This document shows positions 6,331 through 46,417 of a DNA stretch of 64,000 nucleotides, piece after piece (positions within the stretch are counted from its first letter, which is position 1; each line of letters starts with the position of its first letter). The notes under the pieces are model-generated. The model searched no databases. It was not told the DNA's origin and saw only the letters and a program-made list of their open reading frames with translations. Location: the sequence record PZ445432.1; one strand, 5' to 3'. The stretch comes from a phage. Both the position numbers and the translations under genes were made by a program.

Positions 6331-6525
6331 TTAGACACTTAAAATACTTCTAATCTCTTCTATATACTTATCTACTTTTTTAGCATCTATTTTACTTAGT
6401 TTTCCTATATCAAAATCAGGATCAGTCAAATATCTTGCCATAAATTTTACTTGTTTAGCTGAAAGTTGACCCTTATTCCACTTTTTAATTTTACCATAAC
6501 ATACCCAATATTCTTTATTCATCAT
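6331..6525 (-). CDS. hypothetical protein
   Basis: ORF from track. Confidence 0.4.
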   Translation of the reverse strand: MMNKEYWVCYGKIKKWNKGQLSAKQVKFMARYLTDPDFDIGKLSKIDAKKVDKYIEEIRSILSV

Positions 6526-6907
6526 TTAGTCCCGAAACATAAATCCCAACACGGTTTAATTGTTCTTTGGCTTCTTTGAGAATATCTGGAGTGTACTCCC
6601 AAATATCATCTTCCACCTGTAAAAGATGGGGCGAACAACCGTCATCGGGCACACGACATATGGCCAAACCACGTGGATGGAACAAAGAGAAATTTAGTGC
6701 AACAATTAAACCCATAGCAGACAACTCATTCCAATCCAATTCCCATTCCCTAGCGTAGCCTGATAGGAAAACACCAATACAGGGATCGTCTATTTGCTGC
6801 TCCGGAAAAGTAAAGGAGGCTTGTCTTACCCCCAACCAACGTTGTAGCAGCTTCTCCGCACGCTTCACCAAACTAGGATCAATCTGACGCCAATATACTT
6901 GTTCCAT
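6515..6907 (-). CDS. hypothetical protein (paralog of 6917-7345)
   Basis: shares CIGVFL...W.EL.AMGL..ALN..LF.P block with the adjacent ORF. Confidence 0.5.
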   Translation of the reverse strand: MEQVYWRQIDPSLVKRAEKLLQRWLGVRQASFTFPEQQIDDPCIGVFLSGYAREWELDWNELSAMGLIVALNFSLFHPRGLAICRVPDDGCSPHLLQVEDDIWEYTPDILKEAKEQLNRVGIYVSGLNDE

Positions 6908-6916
6908 TGTGCCACC

Positions 6917-7345
6917 TTAGGCAGTTAAACCAGGAATTTGATAACCAAAACGACGAAGTTTCTGGATACCATCATTTACTTCTTCCGGTGAGTAAGACCA
7001 ACCGTAATGTTCATCAACTTGAAAGCCAGGAGATTCACTGGTTTTATAGTTAACAACAATACGGTGTTTATTGGGCATAAATAGCTTATAGTTTAATGCA
7101 AAAACCAACCCCATTTCATCCAGCTCTTTCCAGCCGACAATCTCTTCCAGACCATCCTCTACCTGCACAACTAGACCAATACACGGGGCCTCATCAATAT
7201 CATCTTTAAAAGCAAAGGAGATTTCATTATTTTCACACCATATTTTCAAGGAGTTAATAGTCTCATTATACAGGCTAGCTGGGAGAGTACGCCAGAAGTT
7301 AACCAAAATTGGATTAGCTTCTTTAGAGAATACATTATTGAACAT
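6917..7345 (-). CDS. hypothetical protein (paralog of 6515-6907)
   Basis: CIGLVVQ...WKELDEMGLVFALNYKLFMP similar to neighbour. Confidence 0.5.
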   Translation of the reverse strand: MFNNVFSKEANPILVNFWRTLPASLYNETINSLKIWCENNEISFAFKDDIDEAPCIGLVVQVEDGLEEIVGWKELDEMGLVFALNYKLFMPNKHRIVVNYKTSESPGFQVDEHYGWSYSPEEVNDGIQKLRRFGYQIPGLTA

Positions 7346-7347
7346 AT

Positions 7348-7854
7348 TTACACCTTAAGTTGTTGTAGGGCTTTACACATTTCAAGATCTGGACTAAATT
7401 CTAGCATATAGCTAACAGCCATTAAATCTTGAAGGTTTATTCCAGTTCTACCGTTGACTATAACCGTTGGATACTGGTACATCATAGCACCAGCGTCATC
7501 CAGCACACACCAATGTTTGAGCTTATGCTTTTCAACGAAGCGAAGAACAGAATTACCCCTAGATAGCCCACCACCAGTAAAATCCGTTGTACCAAGAAAA
7601 CGATCAATAAGATCTAATCTGGTCATAATCTGAACGTTCTCCATCTCATTCCTGACAGAGAACCATGAAGATACCCCAACAATCATTATTGGAGAAGGAC
7701 GAATAAAGTCCTGAAAAGCCTTGAGAAGCGGCTTAAAAACCCAGTCACTTCCAAAGAAAATCTTTTCATCATCAGGTGCATGATGGTGGGAGATGCTCGA
7801 ATTAAGCACCCCATCGATGTCTAGAAAAATAATTGGAGTATTACTTATTTCCAT
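7348..7854 (-). CDS. HAD-superfamily phosphatase-like protein
   Basis: N-terminal FLDIDGVL motif (DxDG nucleophile motif of HAD hydrolases). Confidence 0.55.
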   Translation of the reverse strand: MEISNTPIIFLDIDGVLNSSISHHHAPDDEKIFFGSDWVFKPLLKAFQDFIRPSPIMIVGVSSWFSVRNEMENVQIMTRLDLIDRFLGTTDFTGGGLSRGNSVLRFVEKHKLKHWCVLDDAGAMMYQYPTVIVNGRTGINLQDLMAVSYMLEFSPDLEMCKALQQLKV

Positions 7855-8023
7855 TTCTGTTCCTTTCTAAGAACGTATCATACTCAACCGTATCAACATA
7901 TATGACACCATAGTCATCGGATTTATAGTCCATTTCCCATAGCTCACATCGATAGCACCAACTACCATCCGCCCATACAAATATATCATCGGGATGTGTA
8001 TACACAGATTTAACTATGGACAT
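7841..8023 (-). CDS. hypothetical protein
   Basis: ORF from track. Confidence 0.35.
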   Translation of the reverse strand: MSIVKSVYTHPDDIFVWADGSWCYRCELWEMDYKSDDYGVIYVDTVEYDTFLERNRNGNK

Positions 8024-8838
8024 ATTTGTTTTCCCGGCATATAAGGTCTACCCTCTAGATGAGCTTCTACACGAGCAATAAAACCAGGATCACTGAAAGC
8101 ATCTACTGCACCTTTACTCCAGTAAGGAATACCACGATCTTCCAGTTGGTACATATCACTACGAGTCATACCTTGATAGCCTGGTTTCGACGCTAGGGCA
8201 CTATCATAGTAGTTAACTACCATAAGTTTCGCAGCAGTCCGATTAAGAACAGGGAATAGTTCCCAGTAGAAGTTAATTACTTGGTTAGAGCAACCAACTA
8301 CAACGATCATATCTTGACTGGTAATACCATCAAAAATATTGTACATTTCTGCGTACGCTGGAGCATGCTCACCAAAAAAGATTACATTAGGTTTAACCCA
8401 TTTATAATCATCTGGGTCAATAGAGTTATACCCAACATCAATAACCCGTTTATTACTACTATTGTAGCTATCAGCTACAACAACCTCTTTTAAATATCCG
8501 TGAATGTGCAGAATATCACTATGTGGAACGCCAGCACGCTCAATAAGGTCATCAACGTTGGTAGTCAAGTTTACTACTTGACCCGGATATTTCTTATACC
8601 ATTCACCAATACGCAAGTGTGCAAGATTAGGTTCAACAGTTTCTAACTCTTCACGCCGCTTGTTGTAAAACATATGGGTTTTATGATAAAAGTTACCACG
8701 AAAGGCGTGAATATTACATACTTCTTCTAGATCATAATCATCCCACAGTGCTTTACCACTAGCAGTATCGGTACGAAAAGCTCGTACACCACTTTCAACG
8801 CTCAAACCTGCACCGCTAATAATAATTAATCTACGCAC
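8014..8838 (-). CDS. Sir2-family NAD-dependent deacetylase-like protein
   Basis: GAGLSVESGVRAFR and TTNVDDL motifs characteristic of sirtuins. Confidence 0.7.
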   Translation of the reverse strand: MRRLIIISGAGLSVESGVRAFRTDTASGKALWDDYDLEEVCNIHAFRGNFYHKTHMFYNKRREELETVEPNLAHLRIGEWYKKYPGQVVNLTTNVDDLIERAGVPHSDILHIHGYLKEVVVADSYNSSNKRVIDVGYNSIDPDDYKWVKPNVIFFGEHAPAYAEMYNIFDGITSQDMIVVVGCSNQVINFYWELFPVLNRTAAKLMVVNYYDSALASKPGYQGMTRSDMYQLEDRGIPYWSKGAVDAFSDPGFIARVEAHLEGRPYMPGKQICP

Positions 8839-15513: not shown

Positions 15514-16029
15514 TTGATAACACAAGATGAATTAAAAAGGATTCTGGAGTATAATCCAGATGAAGGAACATTTACTTGGTTAAATAACCAGGAAGTACAC
15601 AATAAAGTAAGGGGACTACCTGCTGGCTGTTTAAAACCCCACTCAGTAGATCCTAACCGAAAAGACTTAGTAATACAAATCAAGGGTAAGAAGTATCCCG
15701 CACAAAATATTGCTTTCCTGTACATGACAGGAAACTTACCTAAAGTTATGGTTGACCATATAGATGGAGATTCACTAAACTATAAGTGGGCTAATCTAAG
15801 AGAAGCAGACTGGCAGTTAAATAGTCAAAATAGAAAAACTAGTAAAAACAATATATTGGGTACTAAGAATATTCGGAAGAAAGGGTCTGGATTTCAAGTT
15901 AGAAAATCCATTAACGGAAAAGAATATGTGAAAACTCTCCCAACTCTAGAAGAGGCGATAGAGTATCGAGATTCTTTAATCCTCTCTATAACCAAAGATC
16001 CAACACTACTTAGAAACACAGATAAATAG
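15514..16029 (+). CDS. HNH homing endonuclease
   Basis: HIDGDSLNYKWANLREA HNH signature; inserted between nrdA and nrdB. Confidence 0.75.
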   Translation: MITQDELKRILEYNPDEGTFTWLNNQEVHNKVRGLPAGCLKPHSVDPNRKDLVIQIKGKKYPAQNIAFLYMTGNLPKVMVDHIDGDSLNYKWANLREADWQLNSQNRKTSKNNILGTKNIRKKGSGFQVRKSINGKEYVKTLPTLEEAIEYRDSLILSITKDPTLLRNTDK

Positions 16030-19409: not shown

Positions 19410-19452
19410 TAAAAATTCAATTGCTTAAAGCCCTCTAATTTAGTATAATATT
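19410..19452 (+). promoter_or_regulatory. conserved early sigma70 promoter
   Basis: aaaaattcaattgcttaaag...tagtataat. Confidence 0.55.
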
Positions 19453-19476: not shown

Positions 19477-19761
19477 ATGAGAATTTATAACTCAAATTCA
19501 TTAGGATTTAAACCATTGAGAAAACGTGCACAATCACCTCGTCAAATAAGAAAGGCTAATATTGGTGAACCAGAAACACGTCTTCCACCTCCTCCAGAAC
19601 AACGTTTAGTTTATCTGGACGAAGAATTAGCGGAACGCGAAAGAAAAGCTCAAGAAGAGATTAAGCATAAGAAAATGTGTACTGCTCCAGCCTACTCCAA
19701 AGGGGCTTATCAATATATCTATACAGCCGAGGAGGCTAAAGATGCGGGGCGTAAAAAATGA
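19477..19761 (+). CDS. hypothetical protein
   Basis: ORF from track. Confidence 0.5.
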   Translation: MRIYNSNSLGFKPLRKRAQSPRQIRKANIGEPETRLPPPPEQRLVYLDEELAERERKAQEEIKHKKMCTAPAYSKGAYQYIYTAEEAKDAGRKK

Positions 19762-20207
19762 AGATTACTGAATTTAAAGGTACTTATAGTTTTTTATCTA
19801 ACTTTTATTTATCACCAATTACTTTCGAATATCTAAATGAGATATGGCATGCTGATACTGTAGAACATGCTTTTCAGGCTATGAAATCCGACCAAAAAGA
19901 TGATGTAGCTCATGTGCTGCGCTCCCTAAATGCAGGAGTTGCCAAACGTAGAGGACGTAAATTAACTCTGCGCTCTGACTGGGATAAGGTAAAAGATGAT
20001 GTAATGTTAGAGCTTTTACGGTTAAAGTTTGCAATCCCTGATTTGAGGGACAAACTGTTAGCAACAAAAAATGCAACTTTGATCGAAGGAAATACCTGGG
20101 GAGATACATACTGGGGTGTTTGCCGAGGCATCGGGGATAATACTTTAGGAGTTCTTTTGATGCAGGTAAGGTCTGAAATTAAAAGAAGTTTACAGTTAAT
20201 AAATTAA
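19758..20207 (+). CDS. NADAR/YbiA-like (DUF1768) domain protein
   Basis: GTYSFLSNFY ... HAFQAMK ... GDTYWG pattern typical of the YbiA/NADAR family. Confidence 0.6.
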   Translation: MKITEFKGTYSFLSNFYLSPITFEYLNEIWHADTVEHAFQAMKSDQKDDVAHVLRSLNAGVAKRRGRKLTLRSDWDKVKDDVMLELLRLKFAIPDLRDKLLATKNATLIEGNTWGDTYWGVCRGIGDNTLGVLLMQVRSEIKRSLQLIN

Positions 20208-20246
20208 AAATTCATTTGCTAAACGCTTCAAATTCTAGTATAATAT
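20205..20246 (+). promoter_or_regulatory. conserved early sigma70 promoter
   Basis: aaaaattcatttgctaaacg...tagtataat. Confidence 0.55.
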
Positions 20247-20282: not shown

Positions 20283-20798
20283 ATGGCTAAGCAGAAAAAC
20301 GCAAAAACTCAAGCAGCAACTACAGTTAAAACTTTCCCTCAGACTGAGGCTAACCGCAAAGCTCGTCTGGAACGCCACCTGCGCAAGCATCCTACTGATG
20401 CTCAAGCTGCACAGGCACTGAATCGTCCGGCTCCGATTCGTCAAAAGCCGAAGGCTAAGAATGCTACTCGTTCTGTAACCCGCCTTGTGACCTATGTACA
20501 GGGTTATGGCCACAAATCTGTTCCAGTAACACTGAGTTTCAATGCTGGAGCTGAATTGTTCCCTCGTAATGGCATGGCCATGAAAGATTACGAGAAAGCA
20601 GTTAACCAGAAACGCAAGCCAACGGCAGATGTGCTTCGTGACACTCATGGACAGTTTGGCTCTGTTAAGCCAAATATCTTTGGCGTAGAGTATAGTAAAG
20701 ATAGTGTTCGTGCTCTGTGTTACGGTGTAGGCATTAAGTTCACTGGTGATTCTGCTCGTAAATCTGCTAAACCAGCTCGTAAACGTAAAGCGAAGTAA
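20283..20798 (+). CDS. hypothetical basic protein
   Basis: good RBS; plus strand consistent with operon; antisense ORF 20250-20825 rejected. Confidence 0.55.
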   Translation: MAKQKNAKTQAATTVKTFPQTEANRKARLERHLRKHPTDAQAAQALNRPAPIRQKPKAKNATRSVTRLVTYVQGYGHKSVPVTLSFNAGAELFPRNGMAMKDYEKAVNQKRKPTADVLRDTHGQFGSVKPNIFGVEYSKDSVRALCYGVGIKFTGDSARKSAKPARKRKAK

Positions 20799-21104: not shown

Positions 21105-21806
21105 ATGAAAGTAAAACCATTTGGTATGCTAGATATTGAATCTCTAGGAACTCCGGGGGATTGTGGTACTACTCATATCGCAATGCCTTCTTTCGCTTTT
21201 GTGGCTATGCATGGGATTGATAAAGACCCTGACTTAGTATTTGCTACTTTGGATGTGCAGGATCAGCTTAATTCTGGTGCCAAAGTTACAGCATCTACTC
21301 TAGCATTCTGGATGGATCAAGCTAAAAATAGCCCGTCTGCTATTCACATTATGGAAGCTATGAAGGAACGTAATCCAAAACTGATTGCCTTCCAAAATGG
21401 TAAACATCATTGCACTACTAAATTAGGCTCAAACTATGCTGCCTTCTCTATGGCTCAAAATATTATGGAGTTGGCTCTAGGCGAAAATGCTTTGTATTAT
21501 GGCAATGGCCCAGAGTTTGATATGACTATCTACTCTGCAAACACGTTCCATGCTGGAACCAATGAAGAGGTAGTTCCGTGGAAATTCTGGAATTTAGGCA
21601 ATGTTCGATCTCTTCGTAATCTCTGGATGCAAGCGGGTTATAGTTACAAAGATCTAGAGGCTGAAGGTATTAGCTGGGCAAAAGCTAAAATGGAGAAGAT
21701 GGACACCATTCGTTATGGGATCTATCCGGTTAAGCACGACCCAGCATTCGATGCCCTAGTTGAGGGCTATTGTGTTGCAGCTATGATCGAAAAAATGAAA
21801 ATTTGA
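21105..21806 (+). CDS. hypothetical protein (possible DEDD-type exonuclease, weak)
   Basis: N-terminal LDIESLG resembles exonuclease motif I; weak. Confidence 0.45.
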   Translation: MKVKPFGMLDIESLGTPGDCGTTHIAMPSFAFVAMHGIDKDPDLVFATLDVQDQLNSGAKVTASTLAFWMDQAKNSPSAIHIMEAMKERNPKLIAFQNGKHHCTTKLGSNYAAFSMAQNIMELALGENALYYGNGPEFDMTIYSANTFHAGTNEEVVPWKFWNLGNVRSLRNLWMQAGYSYKDLEAEGISWAKAKMEKMDTIRYGIYPVKHDPAFDALVEGYCVAAMIEKMKI

Positions 21807-23194: not shown

Positions 23195-24016
23195 ATGGGT
23201 AAATTACAAAAACAAATACTACCATATATAGATTATATCCGAGAAATTATAGAGTATAATCCCTATACTGGTAAATTATTCTATAAGCCTAATAAATATA
23301 AGAATAAAACTTGGCATACTTTATATGCTGGGAGAGAAATATGTAGTAAGAACTCTGATGGGTACATCAGAGTTAGTTTGCTCTTAGATAATAAACCCAC
23401 AATTATTTATGGACACCGAATAGCGTGGCTCCTTCACTATGGGGAGGAACCACCTGCTATGATTGATCATATAAATACTATACCGTGGGATAATAGAATT
23501 ATTAACCTAAGAGAGACAAATTTTAAGTTAAACAGACTTAATACTAACAAAACGGTAGGTGTAGAGCTGCTGCCAGAAGGATTTGTGTACAGCATTACAT
23601 TAGGTGAAAAGTTTTTTGTATCCCCCGGCTTCCCCACTTTCGAACAAGCTAAAGTGGAAAGAGAAAAACTAGTAAATGGTTTATGTAATGCAGAAATTGG
23701 GAAGCAGACCAATATTCTAATAGACGATGTTAGAGATTTACCTGAAATGTCCATTATTTGTCGTACAGTTATAGGTGCGCTGGAACTATCAGATGTGTTT
23801 AGTTTCACAGGATCCTATTTATTTATGGACTCAGATTTAGGAGATTCAGAGGTACAAGGAAAAGATTTATTAGATCATATACTATTATTAGGTCAAAGAC
23901 CCCTAAAAGTGATTCTAGTAACATCTAATCCTGTTGACGCAGAGTACATGAGAGGTACTCTTACGTCTTATGGATACCGAGAAAATCCCAATAGATTAGA
24001 ATATGATCTATTTTAA
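23195..24016 (+). CDS. HNH homing endonuclease-like protein
   Basis: IDHINTIPWDNRIINLRE HNH signature; N-terminus paralogous to the other HNH ORFs. Confidence 0.65.
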   Translation: MGKLQKQILPYIDYIREIIEYNPYTGKLFYKPNKYKNKTWHTLYAGREICSKNSDGYIRVSLLLDNKPTIIYGHRIAWLLHYGEEPPAMIDHINTIPWDNRIINLRETNFKLNRLNTNKTVGVELLPEGFVYSITLGEKFFVSPGFPTFEQAKVEREKLVNGLCNAEIGKQTNILIDDVRDLPEMSIICRTVIGALELSDVFSFTGSYLFMDSDLGDSEVQGKDLLDHILLLGQRPLKVILVTSNPVDAEYMRGTLTSYGYRENPNRLEYDLF

Positions 24017-46213: not shown

Positions 46214-46417
46214 ATGCAAGTATATGTCCTTACTAGAGATATAAATGAGTATAATCAGGATGGTGAGTATTTTGTAAAAGTATTCGCTGAAAAGCCAAGT
46301 AAACAACAATTATTAGATGTTGGAGTACCGGAAGACCAGGCTAAGTGTTTATTACAGGATAAAGAGTTTACTGGAGATGCTTACGAATGTTTCCACCTTA
46401 GCTGTGAGACTATTTAG
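46214..46417 (+). CDS. hypothetical protein
   Basis: ORF from track. Confidence 0.45.
   Translation: MQVYVLTRDINEYNQDGEYFVKVFAEKPSKQQLLDVGVPEDQAKCLLQDKEFTGDAYECFHLSCETI

Follow-up and report, generated by a model that had tools for sequence, protein, structure and literature searches.

Does a NADAR-type open reading frame (ORF) in the early region of a T5-like phage encode an enzyme that counters ADP-ribosylating host defences, and if so, which ones? The window analysed here, a stretch of phage DNA of 64,000 nucleotides (sequence record PZ445432.1), carries such an ORF. The original prediction was that its GxYxFLSNFY, HAFQ and GxxxWG pattern marks a member of the YbiA/NADAR (DUF1768) family and that the gene plausibly serves counter-defence by reversing the ADP-ribosylation of DNA bases, such as that made by DarT-type toxins. 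The gene in question is:

19758–20207, plus strand: NADAR-domain ORF, bas33_0070 (QXV80081.1), the Bas33 allele of AdfN^Bas32

The ORF is intact from ATG to TAA and encodes 149 amino acids, with GTYSFLSNFY at residues 8–17, HAFQ at 37–40, and GDTYWG at 115–120; translated in all six frames, the window contains the composite N-terminal motif a single time. The 1 kb of sequence surrounding the gene finds a 100% match in Escherichia phage HildyBeyeler (number Bas33 in the BASEL collection, MZ501074.1), a close T5 relative from the genus Tequintavirus. Window coordinates equal the coordinates of that record minus 43048, and the mechanically listed ORFs of the window agree with its CDS table. In MZ501074.1 the gene is labelled "hypothetical protein", while sister records call it "swarming motility protein YbiA", "DUF1768/NADAR domain-containing protein" or, wrongly, "GTP cyclohydrolase II". 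Two minus-strand ORFs within the gene (76 and 73 amino acids) were set aside as being without support.

The match of the product to the Pfam NADAR model (PF08719, DUF1768) is significant and far beyond chance (E = 6.3e-22; score 79 bits, gathering cut-off 35.1), and it spans protein residues 9–142 and positions 9–163 of the 163 in the model. A collection of 5.8 billion proteins yielded 1035 homologues, with PF08719 present in all among the matches listed. By sequence, E. coli YbiA (2B3W, E = 2.8e-15) is the closest solved structure, followed by the NADAR-ADP-ribose complex of Phytophthora nicotianae (8BAU, E = 6.8e-7). The same two structures were recovered when an AlphaFold2 model built with a homologue alignment (pLDDT 97.4, pTM 0.91) was compared with the PDB using Foldseek, at TM-scores of 0.82 (2b3w, E = 4e-9) and 0.78 (8bau, E = 2e-6); the DarT1-linked NADAR of G. 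lovleyi (8BAT) gave a poor match (TM 0.50, E = 1.2). The predicted structure has the alpha-helical core between two small beta-sheets, superposable on solved structures, by which we recognized the NADAR fold. Membership was rejected for the NCBIfam model DS32_2, 'NADAR family anti-phage protein' (45 bits, cut-off 240), and for the PADLOC model PDC-M42C (a weak match of 27.8 bits).

Residues were mapped by alignment to 8BAU onto the roles described by Schuller et al. 2023 (PMC11543638), with Pn standing for the P. nicotianae protein. The catalytic positions are encoded as follows:

19863–19865, plus strand: codon GAA for E36, equivalent to Pn E43 and to E88 of the E. coli C7 NADAR; the E-x6-K spacing aligns with YbiA and 8bau
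19884–19886, plus strand: codon AAA for K43, equivalent to Pn K50 and C7 K95
20085–20087, plus strand: codon GAA for E110, equivalent to Pn E125, the third catalytic position, by alignment to 8bau (...LYEasr-hDaiWG)

Pn E43 and C7 E88 coordinate the distal ribose, and Pn K50 and C7 K95 take part in phosphate coordination and are essential for hydrolysis (PMC11543638). The residue at the position of Pn E125 is Glu in the YbiA family, Asp in DarT1-linked (BC4488-type) proteins and His in phage NADARs, following a classification quoted in the same paper (PMC11543638). The catalytic Glu and Lys, plus an acidic residue at the Pn E125 position, are all present in the Bas33 protein. D116 and W119 (Pn D130 and W133) correspond to pyrophosphate contacts, and K63 (Pn K75, C7 K115) to the lysine required for rescue in vivo. 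In an alignment of 118 homologues, no variation is seen at E36, K43, E110, D116 or W119, and K63 is kept in at least 90% of the sequences. As judged from these alignments and from the structural model, the product is a true NADAR-family enzyme consisting of a minimal YbiA-like core. The motif pattern named in the original prediction is present exactly at 19758–20207, and its assignment of the ORF to the YbiA/NADAR family is borne out by the HMM search, the structure and the catalytic residues, which all agree.

An anti-DarTG1 function has already been published and experimentally characterized for the Bas32 version of this protein. According to Johannesman et al. (Nat Commun 2025, PMC11825919; preprint PMC11257639), DELTA-BLAST detected a NADAR protein in Bas32 and Bas33, which was named NADAR^Bas32 and later AdfN^Bas32, for anti-DarT factor NADAR. 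This protein neutralizes the DarT1 toxin in uninfected E. coli (PMC11825919, PMC11257639), and its expression from a plasmid brought RB69, T5 and Bas25 back to full titre on DarTG1 hosts but did not rescue T5 on DarTG2 hosts (PMC11825919). The authors conclude that AdfN^Bas32 targets guanosine ADP-ribosylation and that, in contrast to T4 AdfN, it works without further phage factors (PMC11825919), an activity deduced from neutralization in vivo (PMC11825919, PMC11257639). T5 itself is described there as sensitive to DarTG1 (PMC11825919); its restriction by DarTG1 and its lack of the gene are mutually consistent. Neither a deletion of the gene in Bas32 or Bas33 nor the DarTG1 sensitivity of the native phages was found in the main texts of the two papers (PMC11825919 and PMC11257639), and the HIDEN-SEQ preprint deals with T4 adfN only, with no mention of T5-like phages.

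The rescue assay on DarTG hosts proposed along with the original prediction is therefore on record for the Bas32 allele (PMC11825919), and the DarTG1 rescue supports the counter-defence reading. What stands of that reading is the part concerning DarTG1, with three phages rescued by the plasmid-expressed Bas32 allele; it does not extend to DarTG2 or to DarT toxins generally.

The allele used in those experiments differs slightly from the one in the window. The proteins of Bas33 and its sister phage Bas32 (NC_130053.1), called identical in the Nat Commun 2025 paper (PMC11825919), share 147 of 149 residues (98.7%), with T9 and K104 in Bas33 and A9 and E104 in Bas32; the primer published for cloning specifies the Bas32 allele (A9, E104). 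Positions 9 and 104 are variable columns in the 118-homologue alignment, neither conserved nor catalytic, and an effect of T9A/K104E on function seems unlikely. For the Bas33 locus, the family, fold, catalytic residues, orphan status, gene organization and distribution come from the present analysis, whose additions are minor: the two-residue allele difference, the YbiA-type core, the exact insertion point relative to T5, a prevalence of about 20%, and a second allele in Epseptimavirus.

A counter-defence role also raises the question of when the gene is expressed and with which partners. Upstream, the order is nrdA, a homing endonuclease gene, nrdB, dihydrofolate reductase, thymidylate synthase, a small ORF, and RNase H (rnh), followed by bas33_0069 and the NADAR gene, a region that in T5 is known as the early nucleotide-metabolism/replication block. 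T5 genes fall into three temporal classes (PMC7472727), and the NADAR gene is, by its position, probably expressed early. The elements that bear on its transcription are:

19421–19449, plus strand: probable sigma-70 promoter (TTGCTT, 17 nt, TATAAT) ahead of bas33_0069 and the NADAR gene, by T5 homology
19477–19761, plus strand: bas33_0069, 94 amino acids, homologue of T5.090 by DNA alignment, phrog_4593
20216–20244, plus strand: promoter (TTGCTA, 17 nt, TATAAT), homologue of T5 'promoter P-H 207' (P-H207), from the promoter scan and the T5 annotation

The stop codon of bas33_0069 overlaps the start of the NADAR gene (ATGA), so that the two genes probably share a transcription unit and have coupled translation. 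The stretch at 19421–19449 is nearly identical to an annotated T5 promoter (T5 record 46337–46411), and the P-H207 homologue lies where, by comparison with T5, the NADAR insertion ends on the right. Because a generic promoter scan was not enriched (7 sites against 7.9 in shuffled controls) and the consensus scan missed the upstream promoter, in which the -35 hexamer matches at only 3 of 6 positions, the promoter calls rest on homology to annotated T5 promoters. The scan revealed no terminator-like site between the two promoters; together with the flanking promoters and the ATGA overlap, this suggests that bas33_0069 and the NADAR gene form a single unit running from promoter to promoter. No ADP-ribosyltransferase (ART) gene is adjacent, the neighbours being RNase H, the T5.090 homologue and a DUF7022 protein; bas33_0070 is an orphan NADAR, with the cognate DarT absent next door.

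Several further features of the window were recorded alongside:

6515–6907 and 6917–7345, minus strand: adjacent paralogues with two DUF7415 repeats each (E = 1e-31 and 7e-34)
7348–7854, minus strand: bas33_0053, deposited as hypothetical, a HAD_SAK_2 protein (HAD of 'Swiss Army Knife' RNA-repair proteins, PF18143, E = 1.2e-20); its T5 counterpart, T5.105, carries the label 'Sir2'
8014–8838, minus strand: Sir2-family protein (PF02146, E = 1.5e-24), about 11 kb from the NADAR gene
15514–16029, plus strand: homing endonuclease gene between nrdA and nrdB
20283–20798, plus strand: the downstream neighbour, a full-length DUF7022 protein (E = 1.6e-75), kept in T5 (T5.089), with a P-H207-type promoter
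21105–21806, plus strand: bas33_0073, 'putative metallopeptidase', matching the Rv2179c-like 3'-5' exoribonuclease model PF16473 (E = 1.6e-8); its homologue T5.087 is labelled exonuclease in the T5 record
about 23195–24016, plus strand: bas33_0076, an ORF annotated as intein-containing

The homing endonuclease gene and the intein ORF are mobile elements in the early region, and the Sir2-family protein together with a split NAD-dependent ligase represents several NAD-linked functions in the phage.

The NADAR gene itself is accessory. It is absent from T5, where only T5.090 lies between rnh and T5.089 (the DUF7022 gene). In the DNA alignment of T5 and Bas33, near identity extends across the promoter and most of the T5.090-homologue ORF and gives way to divergence in its last dozen codons; the 447-nt NADAR ORF comes next in Bas33, and shared T5 sequence restarts right after the NADAR stop codon. 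This right-hand junction was set by eye from the shared sequence AAAAATTCATTTGCTAAACGC, as the MAFFT placement was wrong. Since 95 of the 431 records in the phage collection that match the 1-kb region cover at least 80% of it, and 96 records encode a protein at least 95% identical (tblastn), the gene is an accessory one found in about one fifth of T5-like records, and other T5-like phages carry the Bas33 allele unchanged (100% identity). At 36.7% GC (against 36.9% for rnh and 39% for the window), the ORF lies inside the range of its neighbours, and this comparison with neighbours and window gives no compositional sign of recent acquisition.

A second arrangement is found in the Epseptimavirus Salmonella phage vB_SenS_UTK0009 (OQ359889.1), in which a 60%-identical NADAR gene lies between rnh and the T5.090 homologue. 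The order in Bas33 is rnh, T5.090 homologue, NADAR; the insertion points differ, which means that NADAR genes have entered this short interval at two sites. Farther away, a 55%-identical homologue is encoded on the phage-like ENA contig k141_617669 (168 kb) beside genes for a KTI12/AAA_33 kinase, Thg1, a metallophosphatase and a dCMP deaminase, an RNA-repair-like neighbourhood unlike the Bas33 context.

The explanation that we favour, with a probability of roughly 85%, is that bas33_0070 encodes an orphan, antitoxin-like NADAR (AdfN) that hydrolyses DarT1-made guanine-ADP-ribose in phage DNA and is probably expressed early, together with bas33_0069. DarT1, the toxin of DarTG1, modifies phage DNA by adding ADP-ribose to guanine at N2, which blocks replication. 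AdfN would bind the ADP-ribosylated guanine, and E36, K43 and E110 would hydrolyse the N-glycosidic bond between the ribosyl group and N2 to give free ADP-ribose and unmodified guanine, which would make phage replication possible in DarTG1-carrying hosts. With its place in the early block and its probable co-transcription with bas33_0069 from the T5-type sigma-70 promoter, the enzyme would be made as phage DNA first meets the toxin. For the Bas33 protein we infer this chemistry, its early expression, and the sufficiency of the Bas33 allele at its native gene dose.

The natural substrate might instead be mainly something other than DarT1-modified DNA, such as RNA or cytosine ADP-ribosylated by other toxins or defences, or soluble ADP-ribose derivatives (immune signals or RNA-repair by-products), with the anti-DarTG1 effect as one facet of a broader specificity. 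The protein is of the YbiA-like type (E110, 40% identity with YbiA, core fold only), and cytidine-ADPr is stripped from both DNA and RNA by enzymes of the YbiA and NADAR types but not by DarG1 or the T4 NADAR (PMC12945103). Guanosine-ADPr in RNA is removed by all NADAR types tested (PMC11833690), and Iyer et al. suggested that phage NADARs act chiefly on soluble ADPr derivatives (PMC9503650). The settings of some relatives point in the same direction: besides the homologue on the 168-kb contig, with its KTI12/AAA_33 kinase, Thg1 and metallophosphatase genes, a Vibrio phage homologue adjoins a polynucleotide kinase/phosphatase gene, such homologues being about 50% identical to the Bas33 protein. 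In Bas33, however, no RNA-repair genes are adjacent to the gene, and the only direct functional data for this protein, in PMC11825919, are a strong rescue from DarTG1 with no effect on DarTG2. We consider a mainly different substrate unlikely.

Very improbable is a role as an auxiliary metabolic gene for a housekeeping YbiA N-glycosidase that destroys reactive intermediates of the riboflavin pathway, for although the best PDB match in both sequence and structure is E. coli YbiA, E110 is the YbiA-family marker at the Pn E125 position, several public records say 'GTP cyclohydrolase II' or 'YbiA', and NCBIfam TIGR02464 (riboflavin biosynthesis intermediates N-glycosidase) matches the protein (E = 2.6e-18) and 118 of the 118 homologues (best E = 3.2e-28), the score of 66.8 bits is under the curated cut-off of 73.7, which the homologues' scores straddle, the window has no annotated rib genes, T5 lives without the gene and so can dispense with it, and the Bas32 allele neutralizes DarT1 in vivo while YbiA does not.

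The favoured explanation, an orphan NADAR directed against DarT1, may be extended by a tentative proposal that we regard as possible but rather doubtful. AdfN of the T5 type, being minimal and YbiA-like with a catalytic Glu and no DNA-binding extension, might also clear cytosine- and RNA-guanine-ADP-ribose, unlike DarG1 and T4 AdfN, and might in this way protect T5-like phages from undescribed ADP-ribosylating defences; the interval of about 1 kb downstream of rnh might then be a hot spot for the capture of NADAR genes, with at least two captures in the Markadamsvirinae.

A reading of the letters alone thus recovered a real, experimentally validated counter-defence gene. Many sister records mislabel it with the motility or cyclohydrolase names given above; annotated correctly, it helps to predict which T5-like phages, whether therapeutic or model, can multiply on Escherichia and Salmonella that carry DarTG1.

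Among known systems, AdfN^Bas32 is the same gene, and in Bas32 too it is flanked by the T5.090 homologue on one side and the DUF7022 gene on the other. E. coli K-12 YbiA (2B3W) shares 40% identity with the Bas33 protein (BLASTP E = 5e-21), the same core fold and the same E/K/E positions of the catalytic triad; unlike the Bas33 protein, it has about 15 additional N-terminal residues, and its gene is chromosomal, with dinG, rhlE and ybiB as neighbours. YbiA hydrolyses guanosine-ADPr in vitro, yet it does not protect cells from DarT1 (PMC11125620), whereas AdfN^Bas32 does, and membership in the family alone therefore cannot predict protection. Net charge and pI (pI of 9.0 for Bas33, 7.9 for Bas32, 9.4 for YbiA and 9.0 for T4) do not separate the protecting from the non-protecting enzymes among these four.

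DarG1, as represented by the E. coli C7 and G. lovleyi (8BAT) proteins, neutralizes the same toxin, and the same hydrolysis of guanine-N2-ADP-ribose is proposed for both; the lysine of DarG1 needed for rescue in vivo (C7 K115) is K63 in the Bas33 protein. The two differ in that DarG1 is encoded beside DarT1 while the Bas33 gene is an orphan, in the third catalytic residue, which is Asp in DarG1 (C7 D171) and Glu in the Bas33 protein, and in the N-terminal beta1-beta2-alpha1 extension of DarG1, which the Bas33 protein, beginning at the core motif (residue 8), does not have. Schuller et al. proposed this extension as a ssDNA-binding element of DarG1-type antitoxins (PMC11543638).

T4 AdfN (gp30.3) is, like the Bas33 protein, a phage-encoded orphan NADAR; it counters DarTG1 and not DarTG2, and its E-x6-K occupies E36 and K43, the numbering seen in the Bas33 protein. 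It nevertheless has no detectable BLASTP similarity to the Bas33 protein (E = 1.2) and is without the WGDTYWG segment in a three-way alignment, and where the T4 type is marked by His at the third catalytic position, the Bas33 protein has Glu. According to PMC11825919, T4 AdfN is fully effective only in T-even infections and does not neutralize DarT1 alone, as AdfN^Bas32 does. The lack of BLASTP similarity, the missing WGDTYWG segment and the different dependence on T-even infection point to an independent acquisition of T4 AdfN and AdfN^Bas32.
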